A stretch of 64,000 nucleotides of DNA from Oceanispirochaeta sp. (GTDB taxonomy: Bacteria > Spirochaetota > Spirochaetia > DSM-2461), in assembly GCA_963663385.2 (NCBI GenBank), contig CAXXXD010000004.1, positions 960,001 through 1,024,000 of the forward strand, in the 5' to 3' direction. Made by a program: the position numbers and the translations under genes. Below the pieces are notes generated by a model. That model saw nothing but the letters and a program-made list of their open reading frames with translations. It was not told the origin of the DNA and did no database searches. Within the stretch, counting starts at the first letter, position 1. The number at the start of each line of letters is the position of its first letter. Positions 4,054 to 63,986 of this stretch are shown piece after piece.

Positions 4054-4722
4054 ATGCCTATTAAAGCGGTTGCCTTTGATATAGACGGGACCTTGTATCC
4101 CAACTGGAGAATGAAGTTCCACTCTATTCCCTTTCTGTTTTCTCATATTTCTCTTGTGCTGAACTTTTCTCAGGTGCGGAAGGATATCCGGAAAATTGAA
4201 AAAGTCGATCACTTTCGTGACCTTCAGGCCAATCTGATGTCACAGAAAACAGGAATGGATGTGGATACGGCCCAGGATGTTCTGGAACGGATTATCTATA
4301 AAAAATGGGAAAAGATCTTTAAGCGGGTAAGACCTTACTCCGGTTTGGATAAGGCTCTGGTTACCCTCCGGAAGAGAGGGTATAAGCTGGGTATCCTGTC
4401 GGATTTTCCAGTGGGGAACAAACTGAATTATTTTCGTGTCGACGGGCATTGGGATGTGACAATGTCTTCCGAAGAGACCGGGTATCTGAAACCCCATGCC
4501 GCTCCCTTTCTGGCTTTGGCCGAACGCCTGGGCTGTGCCCCGGAAGAGGTTCTGTATGTTGGAAACAGCATAGAATATGATGTAGCCGGTGCATCTGCAG
4601 CAGGAATGAAAACTGTCTATATCAACTGGAAGAAACAGGATCTGCCCTCTGCCGATCTTTCCATTACCTCATACAGGCACTTTGTCGATAAAATCGAATT
4701 CCTGCTGGCTGACGGGGAGTAA
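4054..4722 (+). CDS. HAD-family hydrolase
   Basis: FDIDGTL motif I, KPH and YVGNS..DV.GA..AGM motifs. Confidence 0.92.
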   Translation: MPIKAVAFDIDGTLYPNWRMKFHSIPFLFSHISLVLNFSQVRKDIRKIEKVDHFRDLQANLMSQKTGMDVDTAQDVLERIIYKKWEKIFKRVRPYSGLDKALVTLRKRGYKLGILSDFPVGNKLNYFRVDGHWDVTMSSEETGYLKPHAAPFLALAERLGCAPEEVLYVGNSIEYDVAGASAAGMKTVYINWKKQDLPSADLSITSYRHFVDKIEFLLADGE

Positions 4723-4725
4723 CAG

Positions 4726-7700
4726 ATGACTACCTTCAATACAGCCGATATTATTGTACTGGCCATTGTAGCCATTGTCCTTTTTCTCTATCGGCAGCTG
4801 GATAAAAATAACAGATCTCTGGAAAAGGTTCGCAAGTACGCCGATAAAGTCCGATTGGATCTGGATAAACTGACGAAAGAGAAGAAAACCGAGATTCACG
4901 ATCTGAATATCGATATTGAACTTCAGGAGAAAACCAACCGGGAAATCCTTAAAAGAATCCAGAGCGCCAACAGCGAAGCCCTTCAGCGTTCGGAGGAGCT
5001 GGATACGCTTCGTACTCAGCTGGACAAGGCATCCGGGCGTTTGTCCGATCTGGATGAGCTGACCCGCAATGTGGATGAGAATCTGCAGAGGATCCGGAAA
5101 GAGTCGGAGTATGTGGATTCCGTCGGGCTTCGCCTTAATGATCTGATAAAAAGAACAGAAGAACTGAAAGGCGGTATGGGTGAACTTGTAGGCGCCTTTA
5201 AAAAGAAGAATGCCGCCAGCATAGACGAGCTGAAGAGTGCCTTCAGCGGTGAAATGACCGTGGAGTACCGCCGTTTTGCCGAAGAGTTTCAGGGGCTTCA
5301 GGAAAAACTGGACAGTTTCCAGAGTTCCGTTACCCGGCTTGTTGAACAGCGTGACCGTCTGGCTTCCGAGAAGATGCAGGATTTTACCGAACAGCTGGCA
5401 GCGGTTGAAAATGATTATAATGTCAGGATTGAAAAAACCTCGCAGGAAGCCCTGGCTCTGGAATCTGATGTCTTTGCCGAATTAAAAGAACTGCTGGGAA
5501 ATCATAAAGATACCCTTCAGAGGGATTGGGACAGAACATCCTGTGATCTGTCTGCCAAAATGGAGAATACAAGCGACAATCTGGAAGACCGGATGACCTC
5601 TCTTCAGGAAGAAATGGACAAGATGGCTTCTCATCTCTCTCAAACAACGGGAGAGCAGGATCATGTGCTGTCCTCCATGAAAGAGGAGCTGGAGGTTATG
5701 CTCCAGGCCTTTACAACCTCCCGGACCAGTATGAGCCGGGTGAAGGAAGAGGTGGATCAGGAGCTGGAAAGAATGGAATCCCGTCTGACCGCTCATAAAA
5801 CAGATGTTGAAACCAGGCTGACCGATTTTTCCGAAACATTTACGGGTCGTATTGAGGAAACCGCGGAATCTCTGCAGCTGGAGTCTTTAAAAGCCATAGA
5901 GAAGAAGCTGAAGGAGTATGAAAGCGGATTCTTTCCCCGTTTTAACAGGCTGGAACAGTTTATGGCCGATATGGATGAACTGGAGGGATCCCTTCGTCAG
6001 ACCATGGACGAGGTTCAGACAGGTGTTCTGGAAGACTTCAGCCAGTTTGACCGCAGGATGCAGGACCTTCGTTCAGATGAGGAGAAAGAGACCGAAGAGC
6101 GTGCCGATAAACTGCGTCAGGCTATGAAAGAGCTGGAGCAGGGACTGGATGATCTGAAAAGCCGGGCCTATGATAATGTTTCAGAGCAGCTTCAGGTTTT
6201 TGAAGATGATTTTTTTGCAGATCTCAAAAAACGGGACAATACCCTGCAGTCCAGTTTGAAAGAGTGGCAGGATAATCTGAATATTCAGATTGGCGAAATG
6301 GCTGATCAGCAGAATCGGGACAGGGATGAAGTAGAAAGAACCTATACGGCCGAGATGAACAAGCGCCTGGGAGAAGTTCAGTCCAGGGTTTATCAGCAGC
6401 TTGAGAAATTTCAGGGGCAGGTGGAAGGATTCCGGGAAGCCCTTGACAGCGGTATGGCTGAGGGTACGGGCATGATGCGGCAGTACCATGAGAACCTCTC
6501 CGGTGAGATTGGAAAACTGCAGGACGAATCCATGTCCTATATGACGGGAATCCTGGAGAAGATGAAAACCCATCTTCAGGACAGGCTGGATAAAACACGC
6601 AGCGATTTCGGTCAGAATATGGATAGCCTTTTTGTGGAACTGGAACAGAACAGGAAGGATTTTCACAGCCAGAATGAAGCGGTTCAGTCTGATGTCACAG
6701 CCTGGCAGAACCGGGTTCTTCAGCAGATTCGTGATCAGGAAGCGGATATTACGGAGCAGTACGGCAACTTCAAGGATAAGGTCGCCGAACAGATACAGGA
6801 AGTCCAGGACGATTTCAAGTCCCAGAAAGAAGAGCTTATCCTTTCTACCAATGAAGAGCGTGCCGATCTGAAGCAGGATCTGGCTTCCATGGGTGAGAAA
6901 GTTTACCAGCTGCAGAATGATCTGAAGGATAAAACATCCCAGACCCTTGAGAAATTCAACAGTGATTATAATCTGTTTATCCTGGAGTTTCAGAAGAAGA
7001 TGCGGGACTCCCAGAATGATGCGGAGCTGAAGATCCGGGAGATGCGTCAGGGCGTTAACGATGCCCGGGAGAAAATGGAAGCTTTCCAGAAGAAGCTTTT
7101 TACACGTATTGAGGATGATTCCCGTCATCTGACGGAAAATCTGGAGGAGATTAACCGGAAACAGCAGGATTTTATCGCCCAGACCCATGTGTTTGAAAAG
7201 GCGGATCAGCTTAAGGAATCCCTTACCCGTGATTTGATGAGCCTGAAAACCGAAATCCAGCGTGTGGAAGGCAATATGGATCGGCTGCAGGAGTATCAGG
7301 ACGGATTTGTCCGGGTTCAGGATCAGTACAGGGAAGTTCTGGAGCAGATCAATCGTTTTATGGACGAAAAACAGAAGGTGGACGAACTGGAAGAGAAGAT
7401 ATCCCGTATGGTCAGCCTCTCCAAGTCGGTGGATCTCAAGCTGGATCAGGTTACTTCTTTCCATGATATGCTGCAGCAGTATCAGACCAGGGTTAAGGAA
7501 CTGGAAGATCAACACCATGCCATTGACGCCCGGTTTGCCCGGATTGAATCCAAGGCGAAGATGGTAGACCATACCGCCGAAAGCGTGGACCGTTATACTG
7601 TAGTTCTAAACAATATGGAACAAACCCTGTCCGAAATGAAAAGTGAGATCGATCCTCTGGCCGCCCGTATGGAAGGGGTCGAATCTAAAGATAGGATACT

Positions 7701-20319: not shown

Positions 20320-20406
20320 TTGACAAAAAAGCGCGATAAGTTATATATTCACGGAGCGCTCGGGGCGATAAGCTGCGAACCGCACAGAACTAAATGTTCT
20401 TTTACA
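20320..20406 (+). promoter_or_regulatory. rrn operon 1 sigma70 promoter and boxA-like antitermination site
   Basis: TTGACA 20320-20325, TATATT 20344-20349, AT-rich upstream; TGTTCTTTACAA at about 20395-20406. Confidence 0.65.
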
Positions 20407-20669
20407 AAGGAATTAGAGAAGGGAAATTGAAGTATTTGACGAGAGTCAAGACTGCTGCGTACCGGAGGCCCGAAGGGCTGAGGAACGCAGTAACTGGTAG
20501 AAATGTTCAAATCTTGAAACTTTACGGTTGAAGGGTTTGTCCTAGACGTTAGTTTTCTTTAGAGATAAAGGGACTGACTTTCGCTTTTAGCTGTTCAGGA
20601 TGATTACATCCGCTTTGCAATGGCTGAGGGTTTTGGTAGAAAGTTATCCACCTTGTGTGGATAAATTAT

Positions 20670-22211
<1,542 letters not shown>

Positions 22212-22408
22212 AGCGTGAAAGGTATAAGTCTTGAGGTTTGTACGCCTTGAGCAGTGAGTCACTATTTATAGTGCCTATCAGTAGTTACGTTCCTCGGTCT
22301 TTGACCTGTGGTACGTAACTTGCTTGATTCTCGTCAACTACTTCTAATTTCCCGTCAGATAATTCCTTAAAGGGCTTTAGGCGATTTGAGTTTAAGGCCA
22401 AACAATTA

Positions 22409-22482
<74 letters not shown>

Positions 22483-22616
22483 TAAAATTAAGTTTGTATC
22501 TTGAACAGGATCAAACTTTTTTTACGCCGAATTGCTTGCAGTGAGGCGGGAGATGCGGGAGGCTTTACTCTTGCGGATCTTTGAAAAGGTAATAGCGAAG
22601 GGATAAATAATAATAT

Positions 22617-25541
<2,925 letters not shown>

Positions 25542-25647
25542 TATTATTATTTATCTCTTCGTTTACAACGATAGGATTGAAAATTGATAAATCTAATTTG
25601 AAGTCCTTGACATAAAGTGATGTTACTCAGTAGAGTGATTATCGCAA

Positions 25648-25756
<109 letters not shown>

Positions 25757-25761
25757 TATCT

Positions 25762-25790
25762 GCCCCTTGCAAATCAGCAAGGGGCTTTTT
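25762..25790 (+). terminator. rrn operon 1 terminator
   Basis: GCCCCTTGC-aaatca-GCAAGGGGC-TTTTT. Confidence 0.85.
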
Positions 25791-26113: not shown

Positions 26114-26419
26114 TTGTATCACATTGGCACGGAAGTTGCTAATGGCTCTTTTAAAGATGAATTAGAGAAGGGAAATTGAAGTATTTGACGAGAGTCAAGA
26201 CTGCTGCGTACCGGAAACCCGCAGGGTTGAGGAACGCAGCAACTGGTAGAAATGTTCAAATCCTGAAACTTTACGGTTGAGGGGTTTGTCCTAGACGTTA
26301 GTTTTCTTTAGAGATAAAGGGACTGACTTTCGCTTTCAGCTGTTCAGGATGATTACATCCGCTTTGCAATGGCTGAGGGTTTTGGTAGAAAGTTATCCAC
26401 CTCGTGTGGATAAAATTAT

Positions 26420-27961
<1,542 letters not shown>

Positions 27962-28201
27962 AGCGTGAAAGGTATAAGTCTTGAGGTTTGTACGCCTTGA
28001 GCAGTGAGTCACTATTTATAGTGCCTATCAGTAGTTACGTTCCTCGGTCTTTGACCTGTGGTACGTAACTTGCTTGATTCTCGTTAAATACTTCCAGTTT
28101 CCCTTATTTAAATAGAAATCCGTCAATGGACGGTCGGTTTGAACAGCTTGCTGGTTAAATTGTTTTTACATAGGTAATAGCGAAGGGATAAATAATAATA
28201 T

Positions 28202-31126
<2,925 letters not shown>

Positions 31127-31236
31127 TATTATTATTTATCTCTTCAGTTTTATATAAATTGCAATCGCTTTGGAAGCTAGGAATACTTCTGGAGAGTGAA
31201 TGCTTCTTGTCAGGGTAAGACTTGATAAGATTATTA

Positions 31237-31345
<109 letters not shown>

Positions 31346-31350
31346 TATTT

Positions 31351-31380
31351 GCCCCTTGTCTTAGGATGAGGGGCTTTTTC
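31351..31380 (+). terminator. rrn operon 2 terminator
   Basis: GCCCCTTGTC-ttag-GATGAGGGGC-TTTTT. Confidence 0.85.
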
Positions 31381-52671: not shown

Positions 52672-53022
52672 TTAACTGGCGGCTGGCGGATTATATTGTC
52701 TGGCTATCAGATGATTTATTTCCTCCCGGGATAGTACATCCGGCAGTCGTTTTCTTTCCCTGATTCCGTTAAGTTTATATGGGCGCTCTTTTTTAAGGAC
52801 CAGTTTTTAGAACAGTTTTATGGCAGACCATGCCAGCCGTCGCTGTTCGCTGGTTTTCTGCTCTCTGTCGAGGAACTCTGCAATTCTTGCGTCCGGTTCC
52901 GGTTCCGTTTTTCTGTTGAAGCGAAGAAACTGATCCAGATACAGGCAATACTCCCGAATGGTATTGCGGGAATAACTCCTGTTTCTCATTTCCCTTCGGA
53001 AAATATCCAGATAATTCTGCAT
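52672..53022 (-). pseudogene. Tyrosine recombinase (integron-integrase/Xer-like) pseudogene: nonsense codon and loss of the catalytic domain
   Basis: SAM-like N-domain (MRNRSYSRNTIREYCLYLDQFLRF..AWSAIKLF); TAA at 52809-52807, then same-frame read-through KLVLKKERPYKLNGIRERKRLPDVLSREEINHLI, the typical LPxVLSxEE entry to the catalytic domain; no R..HxxR..Y found downstream. Confidence 0.85.
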
Positions 53023-53106: not shown

Positions 53107-53134
53107 AATGCGCATAATTGTAGTTATTTGTCAT
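53107..53134 (+). other. attI-like primary recombination site with dif-like architecture
   Basis: AATGCGCATAA-TTGTAG-TTATTTGTCAT; G/TT at 53123 begins cassette 1 and partly matches its 3' core (ACATAAC). Confidence 0.65.
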
Positions 53135-53148
53135 TCTTTGGAGACTTA

Positions 53149-53796
53149 ATGAAAGAAATAAATATACCAAAACTGTATAAACAATACTTTGTGGATAAAA
53201 ATGAGGAAAGAAAAGTTTTATTCGAGAAATTGAAGGATACGTACAAACCACAGAAAGGTATTTACCCAGGAAGTTTCGTGCATATCTCTCCTTCTTTTTA
53301 TATTCAAGAAATGCTTTATATCGATTCTGATAAGAGAATTACAAAATTTTTTGAAGATGAAAAAGTCTTAAAATATATAAACCTTAATAAAACTTATGAA
53401 GAAAAACCTAAAATTAAATCATTGCAAGCGGACTTTTCAATTAATTTACCAATTGATGAGAATTATTTCGATATTATGTTTTCCTTTTTTGCAGGTTTTA
53501 TATCACAATCCTGCAAAAAATATTTGAAAAATAATGGTATACTGGTGTGTAATAACAGTCATGGTGATGCGAGCATCGCTTATACTGACAAAGAATATGA
53601 ATTAGTTGCTGTAATAAAAAGAAATGGAAACAATTTCAGCATAAATGATAAAGATTTGGATGAGTATTTCATAAAAAAAGATGGAACCTCCATTGATACA
53701 GATAAAGTTCTAAGTAAGATGATAGGAGAAAATTTTACAAAAAAAGGGTATGCTTATGTGTTTAAATTTAACCGATACCCAAAAAACAACACATAA
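53149..53796 (+). CDS. Cassette 1: class I SAM-dependent methyltransferase-like protein
   Basis: GIYPGS, YIDSD, FDIMFS, KYLKNNGIL; GGAG RBS; stop TAA lies inside the core ACATAAC. Confidence 0.7.
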   Translation: MKEINIPKLYKQYFVDKNEERKVLFEKLKDTYKPQKGIYPGSFVHISPSFYIQEMLYIDSDKRITKFFEDEKVLKYINLNKTYEEKPKIKSLQADFSINLPIDENYFDIMFSFFAGFISQSCKKYLKNNGILVCNNSHGDASIAYTDKEYELVAVIKRNGNNFSINDKDLDEYFIKKDGTSIDTDKVLSKMIGENFTKKGYAYVFKFNRYPKNNT

Positions 53797-53870
53797 CAGC
53801 TAATATGCGGTTCCGCTTTGCTTCACTCAAATCGCCTGCGGCGACTTCGCATATTCGCGGAACGTTATAG
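53791..53870 (+). repeat. attC-like site 1 (intact)
   Basis: ACATAAC-a-gctAATATGCG...CGCATATTcgc-ggaac-GTTATAG. Confidence 0.88.
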
Positions 53871-53966
53871 GCAATAAGCGCCGGCAGAAATTGTTTCTTT
53901 TGTTGGAAGAACTCGCTATCCATGGCTCGTAATAACTTTAAAGTTATAAAGGAGTGTGATAATATA

Positions 53967-54620
53967 ATGAATATGACATTATCTATTATAGGATTCTTCG
54001 GTGGCCTTTTATGTGCTATAGCCGATATGTTATTGGATATCAAAGGTAAAGATAATCTAAAATGTGGTACTAAAAAAATCATGGACAGCAACTGGGTCAA
54101 AATGCCTTCGTGGCGTTTTATCACATCCATTATAATTGTAATGTTTGCAGTTCCGATGTATAGTATGGGAGTTCTCTCGTTAGCAAATCAAATTGCGCTA
54201 AATAATAAATCCCTCGGTGATTTACTTAAACTTTCAATTTTTATTGGAGCAATGGGAGGTTTTTTTATTCATACCCTTATTTGTATTGTTCCTATTATCT
54301 ACAAGGAAATTATGAAAGAAAATAATTTTGAGCTTGCAGATCGAGTAATTACCAATGTGTATAAAGCTGTTAAAATCCCATTTGTTGTACTGTATATTAT
54401 TTTAATATTGATACCTGCAATTATTGTAATTTTTTCAATTAATACAGGATTATTATATGTCCCTAAATGGTTCGTTCTTCTGAACCCGGTAACATTTCAA
54501 ATAATAGGATGGGTTCTTCGAGCAATAAAAAAGGATTGGTTTTATGAAGTTCCTTCTATTTTTATGGCTAGTCTTGGTTTAGCTATGTATGGAATTATTG
54601 GAATAGTTAATTTGATTTAG
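53967..54620 (+). CDS. Cassette 2: multi-TM membrane protein (DUF6796-like)
   Basis: GGLLCAIADMLLD..G, about 6 TMs; AAGGAG RBS at 53949. Confidence 0.7.
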   Translation: MNMTLSIIGFFGGLLCAIADMLLDIKGKDNLKCGTKKIMDSNWVKMPSWRFITSIIIVMFAVPMYSMGVLSLANQIALNNKSLGDLLKLSIFIGAMGGFFIHTLICIVPIIYKEIMKENNFELADRVITNVYKAVKIPFVVLYIILILIPAIIVIFSINTGLLYVPKWFVLLNPVTFQIIGWVLRAIKKDWFYEVPSIFMASLGLAMYGIIGIVNLI

Positions 54621-54685
54621 GCTTATTAACTGAATAATATACTGTGGCCGTTTGCCATCCATGGCTAACTGCTTTTAAATAATCT

Positions 54686-54777
54686 GGCACTTACTGCAAA
54701 TATATGTGGCGCCTTCGGCATAAGCTTCGCAACATTTTTGCTACGCAAAAAAGTCATATATTTGCAAAACACTAGAC
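54686..54777 (+). repeat. attC-like site 2 (left core deleted, right core GTT changed to ACT)
   Basis: Perfect 12-bp stem TGCAAATATATG/CATATATTTGCA, then aaac-ACTAGAC. Confidence 0.7.
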
Positions 54778-54969
54778 GCCATTTTTTTACTAGGGAATAC
54801 AAAATGAAAAATACCAAAATACTATTAATCATATTTACAGGCATTTCATTATACTTAGTAGCTTTTAAATTCCTTCTAATGTTTCAGGATCGTTCTGCTA
54901 CTGCAAAGTAAGCGGTAATTCTCTCCATCTTGCGTGATTTCGAAATGATTATATACTCCATGAAAAATC

Positions 54970-55266
54970 ATGGAGGAACCTAATATGACCAACTGGAATT
55001 GGCCTGAATTAATCGAAGAACAAAAACAGAGCGGGAAAACAATTTCTGAGTTCTGCGCAGATAAAGGAGTTCACTATACATCTTTCTACAAGAATCGAAA
55101 AAAATTAAAGAAAAGCAGTTTTATTGAAATCAAACAGAAAGCCCCGGTATTACAGCCACAAAACCCCACAATGATACTCAGATACAAGGATTTCTCATTG
55201 GATCTGGCATCAGGTTATAACAGGCAATCCCTGATAGATCTTCTGAAGATTCTGAGAGAGTTGTAA
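54970..55266 (+). CDS. tnpA: IS66 accessory protein TnpA
   Basis: W..LIEEQKQSGKTISEFC..GVHYTSFY HTH. Confidence 0.88.
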   Translation: MEEPNMTNWNWPELIEEQKQSGKTISEFCADKGVHYTSFYKNRKKLKKSSFIEIKQKAPVLQPQNPTMILRYKDFSLDLASGYNRQSLIDLLKILREL

Positions 55267-55610
55267 TGTTTGTTGACCTGAACGAATACCGGATCTTTCT
55301 GAGACCCGGCACGACAGACTTAAGAAAAGCGATCAACGGATTATCTCTGTTTATCCAGAATGAAATGAATCATGATTTATTCGCCAAATCGCTATTCCTC
55401 TTTTGTAACCGGCAGAGAAAACTTCTGAAAATTGTCTACTGGGATAATACCGGTTTTTGTCTCTGGCAGAAGAGACTGGAAGAGAACAGATATCCCTGGC
55501 CGGAAACAGATGAAGATGCTAAAGAGATCAGCATGGATGAATTGAAAATGCTCCTGACGGGAATAGACTTTTTCAAAGCGCATAAAAAATTATCATATTC
55601 CCGTATTTAG
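55266..55610 (+). CDS. tnpB: IS66 accessory protein TnpB
   Basis: TDLRKAINGL, LFLFCNRQR..LKIVYWD..GFCLWQKRLE. Confidence 0.95.
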   Translation: MFVDLNEYRIFLRPGTTDLRKAINGLSLFIQNEMNHDLFAKSLFLFCNRQRKLLKIVYWDNTGFCLWQKRLEENRYPWPETDEDAKEISMDELKMLLTGIDFFKAHKKLSYSRI

Positions 55611-55649
55611 AGATTTTATAATTATAGAAACTTTGATAGAATTCCCCGT

Positions 55650-57212
55650 ATGGAGAATGAAGAACAGCATTTAAGAGAACAACTTGATGCACAAAAAATA
55701 GAAATTGCTGAACTGAAAAGACTTAATGCCATTCTCCAGGAGCAAGTAGCAAAACTGAACCTCCTGCACTTTGGAACAAAATCAGAGAAGATAACTGCCG
55801 AAGATAAGAAACAAGCTTCTCTCTTCAATGAAGCGGAAGATAGTGCTTTTGCTCAGAATGATGAAGAGCAGGAGAAAAATGTTATTGAAACGGTTGAGGT
55901 CGGTTCCTACAAGAAAAATATTAAAAAATCCGGCCGGAAACCTCTGCCGGCAGATCTGCCGAGAGAGATCGTGGAATATGATATTCCGGATAAAGATAAG
56001 ATCTGTGCCTGCGGAACAGAAAAGACCTGTATCGGTGAAGATGTTTCCGAGAGAGCAAAAATTATTCCGTCAAAAGTCGTTGTTATTCAGGAACGTAGAA
56101 AAAAGTACTCCTGCAAGAATTGTGAAGGGACGACTCTTGATGAAGCTGCTGTACAGACCGCAGAAGGAGCAAAGCATCTGGTCGCGGGCAGTATTGCCGA
56201 TGAAAGCCTGCTCGCTTGGAGTATAAGCGAAAAGTTTGAGTTCGCTCTTCCTTTCTACAGGCAATCAAAACGGTTAAACCAGATAGGCATACCGATCCCC
56301 CGGGCGACATTGAGCAATCTTACGATAAAATCGGCAACGGCATGTAAGCCTCTATATGATTTGCTGAAAGAAAACATTAAATCCGGTTCCATTATTAATG
56401 CCGATGAGACGAGAGTTCAGGTTCTAAAGGAACCGAAACGAAAAGCTTCAGATAAATCATGGATGTGGGTCTTTCTCAGAGGAGATCCCGATAAAAAATG
56501 TGTCATATTTCAGTATGAGCAAGGCCGATCCCATGCAATTCCGTTGGATTTCTTGGAAAATTACTCTGGCTGGGTTCAAACTGATGATTTTGAGGCCTAC
56601 CATACTGCCCGAAAAAAAGTTGATGGAGATATAAAGCATGTCTTATGCTGGGCCCATGCCAGAAGAAAGTTCTTCCAATATTGGGAATCAACCAAGAAAA
56701 AAGATGCAGAAGCAAAGCAAATTCTCGACCTGATAAAGGATCTGTTTGAACTGGAATCATTACGGGATAATTATTCGCTAAAAGGGTTTCATAAACAGCG
56801 ACAAAATAGAGCAGAACCGATACTAGATAAGTTACAGAAAAAACTGACGAAGCTTTATCCTCAAGTACCTCCTTCTTTAGAGTTCGGTAAGGCGATGAAG
56901 TATACATTGAGCAACTGGGAGCAGTTGGTTCTATATCTGAAAAATCCTGTTTTGACTCCTTCGAACAATAGCGCTGAAAATGCAATCAGACCCTTCGTAA
57001 TCGGGAGAAAAAACTGGCTTTTTGCCGGAAGCCCGAAAGGTGCTGAATCATCGGCAATTCTGTACAGTCTCGTTGAATCTGCGAAGATGAACAATCTTCC
57101 AGTTTATGCTTACTTGTACTTTATCTTCCGGGAATTGCCCTGCTGTGAAAAACAGAGTGATTATGAAAAATTACTTCCCTATAATTTAACTGCTGAAGAT
57201 ATTGCAATCTGA
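55650..57212 (+). CDS. tnpC: IS66 DDE transposase TnpC
   Basis: FGTKSEK, zinc finger, NADET, QTDD, CWAHARRKF, SNNSAENAIRP. Confidence 0.97.
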   Translation: MENEEQHLREQLDAQKIEIAELKRLNAILQEQVAKLNLLHFGTKSEKITAEDKKQASLFNEAEDSAFAQNDEEQEKNVIETVEVGSYKKNIKKSGRKPLPADLPREIVEYDIPDKDKICACGTEKTCIGEDVSERAKIIPSKVVVIQERRKKYSCKNCEGTTLDEAAVQTAEGAKHLVAGSIADESLLAWSISEKFEFALPFYRQSKRLNQIGIPIPRATLSNLTIKSATACKPLYDLLKENIKSGSIINADETRVQVLKEPKRKASDKSWMWVFLRGDPDKKCVIFQYEQGRSHAIPLDFLENYSGWVQTDDFEAYHTARKKVDGDIKHVLCWAHARRKFFQYWESTKKKDAEAKQILDLIKDLFELESLRDNYSLKGFHKQRQNRAEPILDKLQKKLTKLYPQVPPSLEFGKAMKYTLSNWEQLVLYLKNPVLTPSNNSAENAIRPFVIGRKNWLFAGSPKGAESSAILYSLVESAKMNNLPVYAYLYFIFRELPCCEKQSDYEKLLPYNLTAEDIAI

Positions 57213-57516
57213 TCCATCAGTCCTAAAATGCTGTCAATGTGGGAAGAATTACCGCTTACACTGCAAATCCCCCAGCAGTTTCTGTTTCAGCCAACTTAGT
57301 TGCATCGGCCCTGATTTTCATTTTTTTCTTCCTGGCTTCTATTCTTTTTTCCTTTAGTATTTTTACTTGTATTCAAATTTTAAAATTTAATATATTTCTT
57401 TTTATTGGCTATTCAATTTTGCTTTTCTTATCTGACTTCACTCTTGTCGGTATTTCATTTATAGCATTAGTAATTATATTAATTAGAGGCCTTTTACACT
57501 CAAAGCGTAAAAAACA

Positions 57517-57605
57517 GCGTATAAAAAAATATACGTTACGCTTTGCTTCACCCAAATTGGCCGATGGCTCTGTGGTTTGCTTCGTATATTCTCGAAACGT
57601 TAGGT
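57517..57605 (+). repeat. attC-like site 3 (left core degenerate)
   Basis: GCGTATAAA (GCGTCTAAC expected from the cassette start ACTAGACGC), AATATACG...CGTATATTctc-gaaac-GTTAGGT. Confidence 0.8.
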
Positions 57606-57662
57606 GTAATGCTTGACAGAAAAAAAAATCAAAAATAATCTTAAATGAACGGAGGATAAATA

Positions 57663-58289
57663 ATGAAAATTAAGGTTCTAATAGTTATTTTTACAGTTAT
57701 TCTTTTGGCTGGGTGTGCAAGTGGTCCAAAATCACAGGCATACGTATATAAAGATCAATATTGGGATGAGCTTATTTCGCGAAATAAGGTAGTTCAATTA
57801 CTTGATACTCGGTTTGAAGTGGCTTCTCAAGTTGGAAATACACAAAAAGGAGCTCCTTTAGAAAACATTGAAAAAGATGAAATAACTCCTATTGTTGTTG
57901 AAATTCTTAAGAAACATGATTTTGAAGTAAATGTTGTTGGTGGAATCCAATTAGTAGACTCAAATTATACTAACTTTCCACAGGAAAGAATACCCGAAGA
58001 GTCAAGAGATAAATTCTTTGTCCAGGCGTCTTCAATTTACCTTGATAGAAGTTCAACAAATTCAAATTACCAATCTATTTTTAAACTTTACTATGTAACT
58101 CCCGAAGGCGATATTATAAAATTAGGTTTTGGATTGTCAGAACAAAGAGTAGAACATTATGATTCCCTTAATGCTGATGATTTAATTCAAATAAAACAGA
58201 ATGTAAGTACTTCAGATGGTTTCGAAACAATAGTTCTTTCTGTTGTTAAATCTTCTATAGAAACGTTTTTAACCAAAAAAGAGCTCTAA
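57663..58289 (+). CDS. Cassette 4: hypothetical lipoprotein
   Basis: Lipobox LLAGC; GGAGG RBS; TTGACA-17-TAATCT at 57613-57641. Confidence 0.8.
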   Translation: MKIKVLIVIFTVILLAGCASGPKSQAYVYKDQYWDELISRNKVVQLLDTRFEVASQVGNTQKGAPLENIEKDEITPIVVEILKKHDFEVNVVGGIQLVDSNYTNFPQERIPEESRDKFFVQASSIYLDRSSTNSNYQSIFKLYYVTPEGDIIKLGFGLSEQRVEHYDSLNADDLIQIKQNVSTSDGFETIVLSVVKSSIETFLTKKEL

Positions 58290-58304
58290 ACCCCAAAGCA
58301 TTAC

Positions 58305-58420
58305 ACCTACCAGCAAATATACGCTGCGGCTTCGCCTTGGCCTTCGGCAAATAAACCCTTTGAATATATTCAAGCCCTCAAGGGGCCGGGGTTACTTCGT
58401 ATATTCTCGGAATGTTTAGG
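58305..58420 (+). repeat. attC-like site 4
   Basis: ACCTACC-a-gcaAATATACG...CGTATATTctc-ggaat-GTTTAGG. Confidence 0.85.
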
Positions 58421-58487
58421 CAATAAGCACTTTAATTTTTAATAAAATAGAGAAAATGCCACCCCGGCGGCTCGTATTGGAGGTAAA

Positions 58488-58892
58488 ATGAAACATTTAG
58501 GTTCGTGTCTTTGCGGAAATATCAAATATGAAATAAGAGGGAATTTTGAGAACTTTTTTTTCTGTCACTGTAAATCTTGTCGTAAAGATACTGGGTCAGT
58601 TCATGCTTCAAATCTTTTTTCAACAACTGCAACATTAAAATGGTTGAAAGGAGAGGAAAAAGTAAAAATGTATAACCACAAAAATTCAGGCCACATAAAA
58701 AGCTTCTGTCCTAACTGTGGCTCTGCATTACCTAATATTCAAATGGATAGTAAACTACTTGTTGTTCCTGCAGGAAGTCTTGATACAGATATAGAAATGG
58801 TTCCTACTGGTCACATCTATTTAAAAGAGAAAGCGAATTGGGATCACAATCTTGAGATGATTCCACACTATGAGGATTTGCCAAAAGAATAA
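58488..58892 (+). CDS. Cassette 5: GFA/CENP-V family Zn protein
   Basis: GSCLCG, CHCKSCRK, FCPNCGS. Confidence 0.93.
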   Translation: MKHLGSCLCGNIKYEIRGNFENFFFCHCKSCRKDTGSVHASNLFSTTATLKWLKGEEKVKMYNHKNSGHIKSFCPNCGSALPNIQMDSKLLVVPAGSLDTDIEMVPTGHIYLKEKANWDHNLEMIPHYEDLPKE

Positions 58893-58975
58893 AATGTGTA
58901 GAAATCTGAATTTACCGGAAATCAGGCATCGTTCGCCGCCATCTGCACACATTTCAATATATCAGAGCTTAATGC

Positions 58976-59061
58976 CTATAACAGCGTTTTATATGCGGTG
59001 CCTGCGACGTGGGCTTCGTAACAGCCTATAGCAAACGTCATATAAACGCGGAACGTTATAG
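58976..59061 (+). repeat. attC-like site 5 (intact)
   Basis: CTATAAC-a-GCGTTTTATATG...CATATAAACGC-ggaac-GTTATAG. Confidence 0.9.
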
Positions 59062-59134
59062 GCAATAAGCGGTTAGATTTTCTATAAGCAATAAGAATCC
59101 GCCATATATGGCGGATAAAAAAAATAAAAAAGTA

Positions 59135-59165
59135 TTGCAGTTGTCCCAACGTCAAGTTCTATACT
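59135..59165 (+). promoter_or_regulatory. MerR-type promoter with 19-bp spacer
   Basis: TTGCAG-19 nt-TATACT with an imperfect dyad TTGTC..GTCAA in the spacer, directly upstream of a MerR gene. Confidence 0.6.
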
Positions 59166-59210
59166 CCAAAGTGATGATCATCAATAACTGTAAAAGAATG
59201 GATATTAACT

Positions 59211-60131
59211 ATGAATGATTCTGTATCAATAAACGAGATTTCTTCTCTGTTAGGAGTAACAAGCAGAACTATAAGGTTTTGGGAATCGGAAGGTCTTTTT
59301 GAATGTAAGAGACATCCATATTCAGGTCATAGGCTTGTTGAAAACACTATGGTAAATAAAGTTAAACTTTGTTCAGAACTGCGAAATATTGGAATTTCAA
59401 TAAAAGATATTAAACGGATTTTCGAATCGCAATCACTAGCTTCTGTAACAAAAGTTATTGAAGAAAACCTTGCATCAATAGATGCCGATTCTCAAATCTT
59501 TGAGAATCGAAAAGCAATGTTAATAATGCTTTTTAATATTCTCAAAACAGAAGAAAAGATCGCTGCAGGTTCTTTCATTGATTTTCATTCTTTTCTAATC
59601 AATTTACTTCAAGAAAATAACTTGAAGAAATCACAGGAGAAGAAAATGATAAATAGTGACCTGAAAAAAGTGTATGAAATAGTAGAGCTTCCAAAAATGA
59701 GAGTGGTTTATAATATTTCAGTTAGTAAAAGTCCTGAAGATGAAGCAATAGAACCGATACTGGAATGGATAAAAGAGAAAGGGCTTCTTGGTGTATCAAG
59801 ATTGTTTGGTGGAAATGTGAAACCATTTCCCAAGGATTCAAATAGTGAATATGGCTATGGGATGTGTGCGTCAATACCGGCAGATATTGATGTTCCAGAT
59901 CATTTGAAAGAGATGGAAATCCCGGGTGGTTTATATGCACTACTCCCTAGCGATGATGATATTGCTGATTCATGGAAAAAGTTTATGAAAAGTTTTAAGA
60001 AGGATAAGAAGTATTGCTCCGATAGATCTAGATTGTGTTTTGAAGAGCATATTTATTATGGAAGGCCTGGCGATAGTGGGTACTCCTTTAAAATAAATTT
60101 ATTAGAACCAATAAAAGATGTTAATCAGTAG
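59211..60131 (+). CDS. Cassette 6: MerR-family regulator with GyrI-like effector domain
   Basis: SINEISSLLGVTSRTIRFWESEGL HTH; IVELPKMRV..GYGMCASIP..EIPGGLYA..CFEEH. Confidence 0.9.
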   Translation: MNDSVSINEISSLLGVTSRTIRFWESEGLFECKRHPYSGHRLVENTMVNKVKLCSELRNIGISIKDIKRIFESQSLASVTKVIEENLASIDADSQIFENRKAMLIMLFNILKTEEKIAAGSFIDFHSFLINLLQENNLKKSQEKKMINSDLKKVYEIVELPKMRVVYNISVSKSPEDEAIEPILEWIKEKGLLGVSRLFGGNVKPFPKDSNSEYGYGMCASIPADIDVPDHLKEMEIPGGLYALLPSDDDIADSWKKFMKSFKKDKKYCSDRSRLCFEEHIYYGRPGDSGYSFKINLLEPIKDVNQ

Positions 60132-60203
60132 ATAATATCTTTAGCAGAGAGGCCGTTCGCCATCCTTGGCTCACTACTTGTTATTCAACGCAGCGCTTAC
60201 TAC

Positions 60204-60293
60204 CTATAACAGAGTTTACAAGGTTGGGCCTACGGCCTCTCCCAAATTGTCTTGCTGAGCAAGACAACTTTCTGTAAAATCAAAACGTTAAGT
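60204..60293 (+). repeat. attC-like site 6 (intact)
   Basis: CTATAAC-a-GAgTTTACA...TGTAAAaTC-aaaac-GTTAAGT. Confidence 0.85.
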
Positions 60294-60378
60294 GAAATCT
60301 CGTTTTTTGACTGGAGACAGGATTTTTGATAAAATGATATCAATGAGGTTTGCATGATAATTTTCAAAGGGAAATAAC

Positions 60379-61227
60379 ATGAAAAAAGCAGTAAAATATT
60401 TCACTATTTGTATGGTATTAGTATTTACCATTTCAAGTTGCTCCAGAAAAGATGAAAAACTGTCTGTATTTCAATTAACCGGGGAATTAAGAATTACTGA
60501 GATTGAAAGCAATATATTTTTAGTTACGCACAGCTTTCCCTGGCCGGGTAATTCTTTGATGATTGTTATGGATAAAAAGAATATTCTCTGGATCGATACA
60601 CCATATACACCGGAGGCCACTGCTTTAGTATTGAACTGGATTGAAGAAAAGTATGGAAAAGGGTATTCAATTACAGAAATCAATACAGGGTTTCATATTG
60701 ACAATTTGGGTGGCAATCAAGAATTAGTAAAAAGAAATATACCAATATATGGCTCTAATTTGACGTGCGAGCTTCTTGGAACAAGAAGCAAAAACACGAT
60801 GCTGAATATGATGAATTGGCTAAAAGGGGAAAAATACGAAGATTACAGAAACGTGTATTCTGATTTTACATTTTACAGCCCTACTATTACTTTTAACATT
60901 CATGATGAACAAACAATTGTTTTTGGATCAAATGAAGTGATTATATATTATCCTGGACCAACACATACGTATGACAATCTGGTTGTCTATATACCAAGTC
61001 AAAAAATTCTTTTTGGAGGATGTATGATACTGTCCACCGATGCCGATAAAGTTGGTTATATTGAAGATGGGAACTTGGAAGAATGGGCAAATTCACTCAC
61101 AAAATTAGAAAATCGTTTTGATAATATAAGAGTCATTGTTCCTGGTCATGGAAATCCAGGAGACTCTACGCTAATAGCTCATACAAAAGACATCGTTAAT
61201 GCTTCTGGAGAAACGACAGAAGAATGA
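60379..61227 (+). CDS. Cassette 7: subclass B1 metallo-beta-lactamase, SPS-1/SPM-1-like, predicted lipoprotein
   Basis: IDTP, TGFHIDNLGG (G116-x-H118-x-D120), PTHTYDN (H196), FGGC (C221), PGHG (H263); lipobox ISSC. Confidence 0.85.
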   Translation: MKKAVKYFTICMVLVFTISSCSRKDEKLSVFQLTGELRITEIESNIFLVTHSFPWPGNSLMIVMDKKNILWIDTPYTPEATALVLNWIEEKYGKGYSITEINTGFHIDNLGGNQELVKRNIPIYGSNLTCELLGTRSKNTMLNMMNWLKGEKYEDYRNVYSDFTFYSPTITFNIHDEQTIVFGSNEVIIYYPGPTHTYDNLVVYIPSQKILFGGCMILSTDADKVGYIEDGNLEEWANSLTKLENRFDNIRVIVPGHGNPGDSTLIAHTKDIVNASGETTEE

Positions 61228-61238
61228 AAAATTATTTC

Positions 61239-61275
61239 GCCTAACAGCGAATATGCGGTTACGCCTCCGGTTCCA
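61239..61275 (+). repeat. attC-like site 7, left half only
   Basis: GCCTAAC-a-GCGAATATGCGGTTACGCCTCCGGTTCCAT, nearly the same as the left half at 62911, then runs directly into coding-like sequence. Confidence 0.75.
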
Positions 61276-61404
61276 TACTGTGATAGAGAAGAACTAGTTA
61301 AAATATTGAGTGATACAGAATCAATGAAATTTTATCCGGCACCGTTTAGCCATAAGAAAGTAGAGAACTGGATAAAATGGAATGAAATTTGTGAAATATT
61401 CTGA
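61276..61404 (+). pseudogene. Fragment of a RimJ/RimL-type GNAT acetyltransferase
   Basis: DREELVKILSDTESMKFYPAPFSHKKVENWIKWN; no start codon, early stop. Confidence 0.65.
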
Positions 61405-61512
61405 GAAAGAAGTTATGGGAGAAGCGGTTCGGGAAATACTCTAATGTATACACCGATGAAATGTTATATATCAGCAGAACATTCCGTCTGATTATCTTTG
61501 TAGAGATGTTAA

Positions 61513-61806
61513 ATGGAAAATATTGAAACATATAAAGCAACAGATGGTGAGAACATATTAGGATTTATCTCCTTACAGGATGAGTATCTTGCTGCCATTT
61601 TCGTGAGATCTGAATTCCAGGGGAGAGGGATTGGATCTTTATTATTAAACCATGCAATGGATCTCCGTAATAATCTGCAGTTAGAAATGTTCTGTAAAAA
61701 CCAAAAGAGTGTAGAATTTTATAAAACAAAAGGATTTTCTATAATTTCCGAATCAATAGATAATGAGACAGGAGAAAATGAGTTTGTCATGGGGTGGCAG
61801 AAATAA
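61513..61806 (+). pseudogene. GNAT acetyltransferase (YjaB-like), apparently N-terminally truncated
   Basis: ILGFISL..LAAIFVRSEFQGRGIGSLLL..NQKSVEFYKTKGF; only 97 aa. Confidence 0.7.
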
Positions 61807-61812
61807 AACCGG

Positions 61813-61877
61813 GCATAGCTCGAATATGCGATATCGATTCACCACAGTCAACTTCGAATATTTGTGGGATGTTATAT
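61813..61877 (+). repeat. Degenerate attC-like site
   Basis: GCATAGC-t-CGAATATGCG...ACTTCGAATATTTG-tgggat-GTTATAT. Confidence 0.7.
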
Positions 61878-61946
61878 CAAAATTCAAGTATAATTGTGTT
61901 AATTATACCGGAACAAACCGTGGTGCGGTAGTAGAAAGAAGAGTAA

Positions 61947-62840
61947 ATGATTAAATATACAGAAAATATTGAAGATGTTAAGAAATTTATCCAGGAGAAT
62001 TATAATCAAACCATTGATTTGAGTTCTTTAGCGAATGTTGCCTGTTTATCATCTTTCCATTTTTCTAGGATTTTTCGTTCGATTACGGGTTATACGCCTA
62101 TGCAATATCTAAAGAAAATCCGACTTGAAAAATCAATCTACTATCTGACACATAGTTCCTTAAATGTCTCCGAAGTTGCATATAAATGTGGTTTCAATTC
62201 AATATCAAGTTTCAATTCTTCCTTTAAAGCACAATATAATAGAAGACCGAATGAATTCAGAAACATACAAAAAAGCAAGATTAAGGAAGAATTCGGCAAT
62301 AATCAGAAAGAGTTTTCCATAGAGAACAAACATAATCTCAATAACTCGTTTTTAAGGAGAATTTGGGATATGAATGTGAATATCAAAGAACTGCCGGAAT
62401 ACAGAATTGCATTTTTCAGGCATGTCGGAAGTTATTTAAATACAGGAGAAAACTGGAATAAATTACTTAAATGGGTTGAAGCAAAGGATCTATTTAAAAC
62501 AAATCCATTGTTTATTGGAATATCACGAGATGATCCAGCAACAACAGAGGAAAATGCATGTAGACATGATGCCTGTGTAACTCTGCCGGGAGACTTTAAT
62601 GAAGAGGCCGATGGGAGTGAGGTCTTGTATGATAGAATAGCATCTGGAAAATACGCAATCTATGAGTTTTATGATACTATAGATAAGTTGGGATTAGTAT
62701 ACAGAAATCTTTTTATAGAATGGTTACCCCAAAGTGATTATGAAATGGATTGCAGGCCATGTTTAGAAATAAATTTAAATAATCCGGCTGATGATCCTGA
62801 AGGAAAAAGCAGATGTAACATCTGTATTCCAATAAAATAG
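61947..62840 (+). CDS. Cassette: AraC-family regulator with GyrI-like domain
   Basis: LANVACLSSFHFSRIF..VAYKCGFNSISSF; FFRHVGSY..DDP..CRHDAC..GKYA..WLPQS. Confidence 0.93.
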   Translation: MIKYTENIEDVKKFIQENYNQTIDLSSLANVACLSSFHFSRIFRSITGYTPMQYLKKIRLEKSIYYLTHSSLNVSEVAYKCGFNSISSFNSSFKAQYNRRPNEFRNIQKSKIKEEFGNNQKEFSIENKHNLNNSFLRRIWDMNVNIKELPEYRIAFFRHVGSYLNTGENWNKLLKWVEAKDLFKTNPLFIGISRDDPATTEENACRHDACVTLPGDFNEEADGSEVLYDRIASGKYAIYEFYDTIDKLGLVYRNLFIEWLPQSDYEMDCRPCLEINLNNPADDPEGKSRCNICIPIK

Positions 62841-62910
62841 TACCTATTTGGACCGTCTTAAAATACACCCTTGTATTTTGGGGGAATAAATGAAGTAAGC
62901 TATAATCTTC

Positions 62911-62992
62911 ATATAACAGGGAATCCGCGGTTACACCTTCGGCTCCATTCAAAGGATCTCCTGTAACTTAGCATATTCTCAGAACGTAAAAT
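62911..62992 (+). repeat. attC-like site (right core GTT changed to GTA)
   Basis: ATATAAC, complementary to this cassette's GTTATAT start, -a-GGGAATccGC...GCatATTCTC-agaac-GTAAAAT. Confidence 0.8.
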
Positions 62993-63016
62993 GAAATACC
63001 AGGGGGCGTAATCAAG

Positions 63017-63199
63017 TTGAAAAAGAAAATTCGGCGATATGTTTTAATACTTTTAGTTTTTATTCTATTTATCCCGGCAATCTATTTGGGGCTCTTGTTT
63101 TATATTCATGATTTTGATCATAATTTTTTAAAAATAGATCAATGTTTAGATAATGGCGGAAGATGGGATTATAACGATTGTGAATGTAAGCAGGAATAA
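63017..63199 (+). CDS. Cassette: small membrane protein with Cys motif
   Basis: One TM followed by IDQCLDNGGRWDYNDCEC; TTG start with AGGGG RBS. Confidence 0.6.
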   Translation: MKKKIRRYVLILLVFILFIPAIYLGLLFYIHDFDHNFLKIDQCLDNGGRWDYNDCECKQE

Positions 63200-63209
63200 G
63201 GCTGTAAAA

Positions 63210-63243
63210 AGATAACCGCCGCATATTTTCTGAGCCGTTAAAT
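63210..63243 (+). repeat. Collapsed attC-like site (internal deletion)
   Basis: AGATAAC joined almost directly to the right arm CGCATATTttc..GTTAAAT. Confidence 0.55.
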
Positions 63244-63270
63244 TAAATCCATTATTTTAGGGAAATAAAA

Positions 63271-63448
63271 ATGTTAAAAGAATTCATAGGAAAATCTGTT
63301 CATATATAGTGGTATCTACTCTTATTTAACCAACCCGGAGAAAGTTGTCATGATTGATGTTGATGAGAGCTGGTTAAAGCTCGAAAGTCGAAGCAAAATA
63401 ATACTGCCGGATGTAAATAAAATCAGCAAGGTTAAAACGAATAAATGA
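63271..63448 (+). pseudogene. Cassette: small beta-rich protein gene, disrupted
   Basis: MLKEFIGKSVHI* then VVMIDVDESWLKLE..KISKV in another frame; RBS AGGGA; followed by the right-arm remnant TATATTgttgaaat-GTTATAGGCAAT at 63472. Confidence 0.5.
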
Positions 63449-63506
63449 TGTATTTTATATATTGTTGAAATGTTATAGGCAATGATTCAGCTGGAGAAAA
63501 ACGTAC

Positions 63507-63986
63507 ATGAAATATATGTGTCCATTGATAGTTGTAAGTGATGTAAAACGCTCACGGGAATTCTATGAAAAGATTCTGAAACAGACTGTCAAATATGATT
63601 TCGGGGAAAATGTGACATTTGCTGGTGATTTCGCCATACATGAAAAAGCCCATTTTGAATCACTGATAAATAATGCTGAAATTAAAGAGAAATCGAATAA
63701 TTTTGAACTTTATTTTGAGCATGATGATTTGGAAGAGATGGTGGTTAGAATAAAGGAATCAGGGCTGGAGTTTGTACATGAAATAGTAGAACAGCCCTGG
63801 AAGCAGCAGGTTCTAAGGTTTTATGACTATGATAAAAATATGATAGAAGTCGGAGAAAGACTGGAGCATACAGCGTATAGATTATCAAAGCAGAATTATT
63901 CGATTGAAGACATATGCAGAATAACGTATCTGGAAAAAGAAATTGTTGAAAACGCGATAGATGAGTATTCGCATCTGGAGGGATAA
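63507..63986 (+). CDS. Cassette: VOC/glyoxalase-bleomycin-resistance family protein
   Basis: LIVVSDVKRSREFYEKIL, ELYFE, EQPWKQQVLRFYDYDKNMIEV. Confidence 0.9.
   Translation: MKYMCPLIVVSDVKRSREFYEKILKQTVKYDFGENVTFAGDFAIHEKAHFESLINNAEIKEKSNNFELYFEHDDLEEMVVRIKESGLEFVHEIVEQPWKQQVLRFYDYDKNMIEVGERLEHTAYRLSKQNYSIEDICRITYLEKEIVENAIDEYSHLEG

Follow-up and report, generated by a model that had tools for sequence, protein, structure and literature searches.

Does a spirochaete gene for a metallo-beta-lactamase (MBL) with Gly at the first zinc-binding position encode a carbapenemase, and did it reach its place in an array of small genes as a mobile cassette? The locus lies in a stretch of 64,000 nucleotides from Oceanispirochaeta sp. 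(contig CAXXXD010000004.1, positions 960,001 to 1,024,000), hereafter the window. A first-pass annotation of this DNA had proposed an SPS-1/SPM-1-like enzyme, carried as a self-promoted cassette and immobilised because the right half of its site is deleted. Comparison of the gene, its surroundings and its homologs leads us to a reading that we consider probable: the gene would encode an SPS-1-type Gly116 MBL, membrane-anchored and carbapenem-preferring, and would be a cassette that was inserted site-specifically behind an attC-like site and is now stranded. The features on which this reading draws are listed in Table 1.

Table 1. Features of the MBL locus and its surroundings (window coordinates)
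Feature	Position	Strand	Basis
Remnant (N-terminal part, broken) of a short tyrosine recombinase (~270 aa) that points away from the array	52702..53022	-	
Low-GC cassette array: seven full or near-full sites (model R1), half sites, IS66 at 54970-57212	53128..63986	+	
Intact attC-like site at the end of the upstream MerR/GyrI cassette; crossover between G60287 and T60288	60205..60293	+	fold z -3.63
60-bp leader piece carrying a sigma70-like promoter; missing from the closest homologous cassettes	60288..60347	+	
Likely worn relic of an older cassette start, ~33 nt before ATG	60347..60366	+	12/20 vs gene's own end; not significant alone
MBL gene, Gly116, SPS-1-like, 282 aa, predicted lipoprotein (Cys21)	60379..61227	+	ORF, sequence and fold comparison
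G-F-H-I-D motif (BBL 116-120)	60688..60702	+	sequence
Two extra helices, residues 127-161, counterpart of alpha3/alpha4 in SPS-1 and SPM-1	60757..60861	+	model; available text of 10.1101/336024
Cassette end, where the MBL gene's own attC keeps its R'' box (61239-61245) and left arm but no right arm	61226..61275	+	
Start-less GNAT-like fragment fused to the broken site	61276..61404	+	Pfam E 0.0037, below cut-off
Full-length attC-like site, the next one downstream; crossover triplet altered	62912..62992	+	weak fold (z -0.79)

The Gly116 enzyme and its kinship to SPS-1

The open reading frame confirmed the ligand pattern reported by the first-pass annotation, with His118, Asp120, His196, Cys221 and His263 present and the first Zn1 His replaced by Gly. 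Residues G104, H106, D108, H196, C215 and H257 of the protein correspond to BBL positions 116, 118, 120, 196, 221 and 263. The canonical B1 Zn2 ligands Asp120/Cys221/His263 are thus all in place (D108, C215, H257), and the canonical Zn1 triad His116/His118/His196 is interrupted by Gly104. Gly116 together with His118/His196 and a B1 Zn2 site is the combination that marks the SPS-1-like lineage (group B1-5). The second-shell residues Thr187/Asn192 (SPS-1 numbering) are present as T195 and N200, and W55 is kept as the counterpart of SPS-1 Trp48. Over 111 aligned proteins H106, D108, H196, C215 and W55 were invariant, and G104, N200 and H257 were at least 90% conserved.

An AlphaFold2 model built on these 111 proteins (mean pLDDT 93.7) bore out the extra helical segment noted earlier, as two helices (127-147 and 151-161, pLDDT ~90-95) that form an extended alpha3/alpha4 over the active site. 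A lipobox-like sequence was likewise seen, I-S-S-C21 after a hydrophobic stretch (by eye and by pattern). A similar Cys occurs in 8/11 of the nearest database proteins and in 20/59 of a wider set, and the enzyme is predicted from its sequence to be lipid-anchored at the membrane via Cys21. Its own genome holds no second copy of the gene.

The best PDB sequence match was SPS-1 (6CQS, 205 bits; the next reached 120), which was also the best fold match (E 1e-29, rmsd 1.3 Å, TM 0.95 by target, 40% identity); pairwise identity was 104/267 (39%). SPM-1 came next in the fold comparison, with 28-29% identity, and all 43 of the 43 fold matches among those listed were B1 beta-lactamases. The NCBIfam model bla_subclass_B1 scored the protein at 180.7 bits, below its cut-off of 200, the blaSPM model gave 116 bits against a cut-off of 500, and the protein fell far below the cut-off of each named MBL family model listed. 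Narrow MBL families are drawn at about 70% identity, and the protein lies outside the SPS and SPM families on these figures. Since the B1 and named models all stayed under cut-off, we regard it as neither a canonical B1 enzyme nor an SPS/SPM allele; by analogy, it should work like SPS-1. The label SPS-1/SPM-1-like therefore stands for SPS-1, and SPM-1 is not close.

The available text of 10.1101/336024 describes SPS-1 as binding two Zn, with Zn1 on two His and a water fixed through Gly96/Asn192, an arrangement enabled by Thr187. It reports hydrolysis of imipenem and meropenem and not of ampicillin, penicillin G, cefuroxime or cephalexin, an absence of captopril binding, and a steric role for Trp48. 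Imipenem was also hydrolysed by SPS-1 in E. coli, according to the accessible part of PMC5637372. If the analogy holds, Zn2 of the window enzyme would sit on Asp120/Cys221/His263, and Zn1 on His118, on His196 and on a water that the Gly116 backbone and Asn200 would fix and Thr195 would position. The pocket would be narrowed by the two extra helices and by Trp55, so that carbapenems would pass and bulky penicillins would not. From this we infer two-zinc carbapenem hydrolysis with a narrow spectrum.

Comparison with known systems placed the enzyme closest to SPS-1 of Sediminispirochaeta smaragdinae (as documented in 6CQS and in the available parts of the two sources above), with which it shares Gly116, the five Zn ligands, the second-shell Thr and Asn, the Trp of a shortened loop and the two extra helices. 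SPS-1 differs in having Tyr after Gly116, where the window enzyme has Phe, and in lacking a lipobox-like Cys. SPM-1 of Pseudomonas aeruginosa (2FHX, 4BP0) shares the B1 fold with a central helical insertion but has His116. IMP, VIM and GIM, from class 1 integrons, resemble the window gene in being MBL genes carried as cassettes, in records that adjoin intI1, but show ~30% identity, His116, complete sites and an intact IntI1, and lie on a separate branch of the tree. SPM-1, for its part, moves with ISCR4 and is not known as a cassette.

A protein search recovered 451 relatives at E 1e-20 or better. Among the query and 120 of these relatives, the matches listed, Gly116 was found in 119/121 and His in 2/121, and position 195 was Thr or Ser in 120/121; the two His116 proteins carry Ser/Ala and Gly/Asn at 195/200. 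On a quick tree of 60 rows, supported by SH-aLRT only and with SPS-1 not among the rows, the 38 Gly116 rows made up one side of a branch (SH-aLRT 83); shuffled labels needed 16 changes. Titled Gly116 records come from Spirochaetota, Bacteroidota, Bacillota, Ignavibacteriota, Planctomycetota, Actinomycetota and Thermodesulfobacteriota, and the nearest tree neighbours of the window enzyme are Bacteroidota, Spirochaetota and Bacillota records. Judged by these sequences, Gly116 is the rule in a large family across seven phyla, not a curiosity. The enzyme type is already known and the Gly116 lineage already in print: in the parts of these papers that were available, SPS-1 and G76 form group B1-5 (PMC5637372), 1N7 is a published member (PMC6598227), and a lineage without His116 is placed in Spirochaetia and Clostridia, with B2 enzymes falling within it at low support (PMC13616975). 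Near the window's own organism the gene is sporadic, being present in 0/10 same-genus and 1/37 same-family genomes; an MBL of this kind was found in 11/400 genomes sampled from the phylum.

A truncated cassette and its leader

The array around the gene has a GC content of ~0.34-0.35 against 0.46 for the genome, and its genes are co-oriented. Its seven full or near-full sites were detected with model R1, which was built from seven hand-picked sites, five from the window and two from genome G011, so that five of the seven array sites are training rows of the model. The site upstream of the MBL gene is a complete AAC...GTT hairpin whose fold was matched in 0/200 shuffles, and the MerR/GyrI cassette that it closes has ends matching at 16/20 positions. 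A single MBL ORF begins after the GTT crossover of this site, as in an integron cassette. The gene's own site (61239-61275) aligned to the left arm only and had no fold (z +0.22), leaving R''-L''-L'-R' incomplete; its R'' box and left arm are in register with the other window sites. The truncation is not an assembly slip, because a contig from another study spans 59970-61863 and crosses the junction without a gap or a joint, with 6 differences over 1.9 kb (depth 2.6). Joints were absent from the locus in 4 sequencing runs.

Several other observations were made in the window. A near-identical contig of run X6 stops matching at 61863 yet is 2.6 kb longer (depth 2.6), hinting at a different downstream arrangement in another strain. 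A palindromic motif of the GCCATCC-TGGC type recurs near cassette starts and directly after stop codons (window 53916, 54648, 58930 and 60157; locus L094 of genome G014, 2758 and 5759). A second promoter-like sequence, found by eye, lies at 57606-57640, directly behind a site and before a cassette for a 208-aa predicted lipoprotein. Outside the array, two long near-identical blocks occupy 20390-25769 and 26139-31358, ~5.6-5.75 kb apart.

The promoter pattern was found exactly as first annotated, with a -35 TTGACT at 60307-60312, a spacer of 17 and TAAAAT at 60330-60335, the TG-extended -10 covering 60327-60335. Over a 1.4-kb region such patterns occur at the rate of chance (5 found, 5.8 expected); within the 91-nt leader, a 10/12 site with TG arose in 29/5000 shuffles, and one without TG in 174/5000. 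The outer start at 60288 matches the gene's own end at 13/20 positions (144/2000 shuffles) and at 10/12 over the first 12. Intact cassettes of the same system match at 16-19/20 end to end. The first 12 nt of the leader piece are those with which two unrelated cassettes of G014 begin, and agree at 11/12 with a toxin-antitoxin-like cassette in G011. A search for its donor found the pattern in 0/37 other family genomes. The 60-bp piece looks added because five homologs begin ~33 nt before the ATG and a worn look-alike of such a start stands at that distance here. On this sequence evidence we lean towards a later addition, probably the head of another cassette (promoter capture). The cassette anatomy behind the term 'self-promoted cassette' stands, and its promoter was probably not part of the cassette from the outset.

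Homologous loci, recombinases and attC classes

Whether relatives are cassettes too was examined at 69 homolog loci (58 + 11), of which 14 were duplicates (including L130 = L009 and L131 = L012), leaving 55 distinct, 3 of them without upstream DNA. The end probe, the reverse complement of the window cassette end 61226-61245, matched the leaders of L001 (17/20; 78% identity, a Bacteroidota MAG that could be misbinned), L002 (15/20; 75%), L124 (15/20; 70%), L003 (15/20; 66%, Wukongibacter) and L126 (16/20; 62%). Each match was reached in at most 3/400 shuffles and lies 24-36 nt before the estimated start. Five of the six loci at 62% identity or above showed it (L004 fails), and none below. At L003 and L126 the match begins right behind an attC-like hairpin, of modest stability (z -1.85 and -1.75). 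L002 keeps the window's left arm (23/26, 0/1000 shuffles) and has a recombinase fragment ~2.5 kb away.

A second site model, R2, was built from 25 hand-picked sites in relatives' long-IntI arrays. Run on 56 loci, it detected a full attC directly upstream of L036, a 34% homolog in genome G081 (51 bits; a short hairpin after the gene, z -1.91), and of L135 in genome G487 (47.8 bits). The L135 protein is identical to 6CQS over residues 32-276, which makes it SPS-1's own gene; its downstream site looks incomplete. The proposal that blaSPS-1 be examined for flanking sites of the same kind was thus answered in part: a full attC is directly upstream, but it belongs to another class than the window's, being matched by R2 and not by R1. 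Cassette ends were in this way found at 7/55 distinct loci. Because the other 48/55 showed none with probes biased to the window's own ends, much of the Gly116 family may be ordinary chromosomal genes. Model R1 had L003 as its sole match on 58 homolog loci and none on the 11 further ones; it under-counts, since half sites and the L124 and L126 hairpins, seen by eye, were missed. Two candidates were rejected as cassettes: L127 (14/20, 8/400 shuffles, overlying the ribosome site) and L016, where a downstream AAC...GTT hairpin has a z of only -1.45.

Since SPS-1's gene and several relatives in other phyla carry cassette ends, this enzyme lineage has probably passed from one environmental bacterium to another in cassette form. 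At 3.9 kb from the Wukongibacter (Bacillota) gene there are genes for AAA_25, MobC, a relaxase and a serine recombinase, in a genome with no IntI match at E 1e-30. We found no account of a Gly116 enzyme as a cassette in the literature covered, which included the accessible parts of PMC8352920 and PMC10740994, most subscription papers and supplements being outside its scope; the comparative result on the mobility of the lineage is modestly new.

These loci offered further side observations. In G487 the SPS-1 gene belongs to a low-GC run of genes that share one orientation (L137:11559-18454), with two full attC sites and, upstream, a toxin-antitoxin-like pair; IntI is matched in that genome only by a 135-aa fragment far away. 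In Wukongibacter the module also occurs with an RloB/AAA_21 pair, with at least three attC-like sites nearby (L116:8774-15976 and L003). Many near-identical short cassettes follow one another at ~399-bp spacing in L083:9159-15773 (genome G020), and L094 has apparently gene-less cassettes with near-perfect ends (4609-4926 and from 6067).

The recombinase beside the window array is a broken remnant, and the array is accordingly not a complete integron. Relatives of it in genomes G016, G019 and G014 have open frames of ~270 aa (266-273 aa). The one aligned, from G016, is without the IntI-specific insertion and scored 185 bits against the IntI cut-off of 265; the insertion is defining for IntI and needed for integron recombination according to the available text of 10.1101/2022.02.06.479319. 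TBLASTN with a long IntI did not detect the window remnant, and no short recombinase was found in viral contigs. In G014 the short recombinase (L094:1810-2610) points away from an array of six sites that belong to the window's class (L094 3323-6072), where the end and start of four cassettes agree at 17-19/20. A member of the group is also found at L091:913-1713, and similar sites occur close to a short recombinase in G081 (L102) and to a second remnant in G011.

The window's own genome holds an intact 408-aa IntI on another contig, C2, which scored 381 bits, above cut-off, and has its own array. Model R2 had four matches in this array (L021/L024) and none in the window, and R1 the reverse; by these sequence models the C2 sites are of a different attC class from the window's. 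The C2 region (G000:C2:1651000-1689000; L021, L024) is a second, complete integron. Several reverse-transcriptase ORFs of 426 aa, identical to one another and read here as group II intron-like, follow directly on cassette genes there, on the opposite strand; some are cut by IS66. Sedentary integrons and CALINs of spirochaetes, as presented in the accessible parts of PMC3607928, PMC8352920 and 10.1101/2022.02.06.479319, resemble the window in their low-GC, co-oriented genes with AAC...GTT hairpins between. Unlike them, the window system has a recombinase of the 266-273 aa group without the IntI-specific insertion (one member aligned) and cassette ends complementary over ~20 nt.

Course of events, rival readings and significance

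The following course of events would account for the locus. The ancestral cassette would have had its start ~33 nt ahead of the ATG and a full attC at its end, and would have entered the window array recently, since 0/10 congeners have the MBL. The enzyme that inserted it was probably the short recombinase of which a broken remnant is left, proposed because it adjoins the array. The 60-bp promoter-bearing piece, probably another cassette's head, would then have come to lie in front, and a deletion would have taken the right arm of the gene's own site. The predicted outcome is expression independent of an array promoter and a cassette whose single excision is ruled out.

This reading has to be weighed against others, of which the one concerning the leader is the least improbable. 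The promoter could be original to the MBL cassette, with the start at 60288 and homologs that lost or replaced their leaders; the pairing of the outer start with the gene's end at 10/12 first positions and the failure to find a donor in 37 family genomes speak for this. We regard it as possible though doubtful, since the five homologs at 62-78% identity begin 24-36 nt before their estimated starts, two of them directly behind a hairpin, the first 12 nt recur at the starts of the unrelated G014 cassettes and, at 11/12, in the G011 cassette, and a match of 13/20 falls short of the 16-19/20 of intact cassettes. It is far less credible that the gene is not a cassette and was inserted otherwise into a decayed array. 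Its incomplete site and the lack of sites at most homologs would fit, but its R'' box and left arm line up with those of the other sites and the complementary start recurs in homologs; this complementarity of start and end largely rules that reading out.

Two further readings concern the activity of the enzyme and its present mobility, and both seem unlikely. The protein could be an MBL-fold hydrolase with another natural substrate, beta-lactam hydrolysis being weak or absent in this sub-branch. Identity to SPS-1 is just 39%, the NCBIfam B1 score is under cut-off, the family is frequent in anaerobic environmental genomes under titles that mostly read only 'MBL fold metallo-hydrolase', and the array neighbours are GNAT, glyoxalase and GyrI-type regulator genes. 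Against this, the fold matches listed were B1 beta-lactamases without exception (43/43), ligands and second shell are kept, and SPS-1 hydrolysed imipenem in E. coli (available part of PMC5637372). The gene could also still be mobile, if the C2 IntI excised it with downstream genes between the upstream site and a later one: the 408-aa IntI (381 bits) and the upstream site are intact, a full-length site stands at 62912-62992, and the near-identical contig leaves the window match at 61863. The fold of that later site, however, is poor and its crossover triplet altered, the sites of the C2 array belong to another attC class, and the 4 runs showed no joints. With the stranded cassette as the preferred reading, excision of the MBL gene as a single cassette should be impossible. 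The right half of its site is indeed gone, and 'immobilised' is likely to be right but should not be taken strictly, given the intact IntI in another part of the genome.

Of the idea that environmental spirochaete cassette arrays may be a reservoir of this carbapenemase lineage, the part that relatives are cassettes as well is supported, SPS-1's gene behind a full attC among them; its extension to clinical spread has so far no support, and 48/55 homolog loci gave no cassette ends with the probes used. Among 72,556 plasmids no homolog exceeded about 33% (best ~32%, the named ones among the 25 matches listed being His116-type), and no plasmid DNA matched window 60500-60900. There is no sign so far of clinical spread.

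The type of Gly116 enzymes is known; their probable mode of movement was not met with in the literature covered. More broadly, and tentatively, the Gly116 lineage, the root of B2 in a 2026 phylogeny, may be an unrecognised cassette-borne carbapenemase family of anaerobes. It may have moved across Spirochaetota, Bacteroidota and Bacillota via two attC systems, of which one would depend on a short recombinase that lacks the IntI-specific domain, may have reached a conjugally mobilisable element in a Gram-positive, and may repeatedly have become fixed when a promoter was captured and its own site lost. Should Gly116 enzymes be active carbapenemases and spread in cassette form, they would constitute a reservoir missed by motif- and cut-off-based screens; the window enzyme itself falls under the NCBIfam B1 cut-off and would be passed over in this way. 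The sole studied member, SPS-1, fails to bind captopril, and its Zn1 site is shifted, and the Gly116 set offers a testable series for the B1-to-B2 transition and for the fixation of cassettes.
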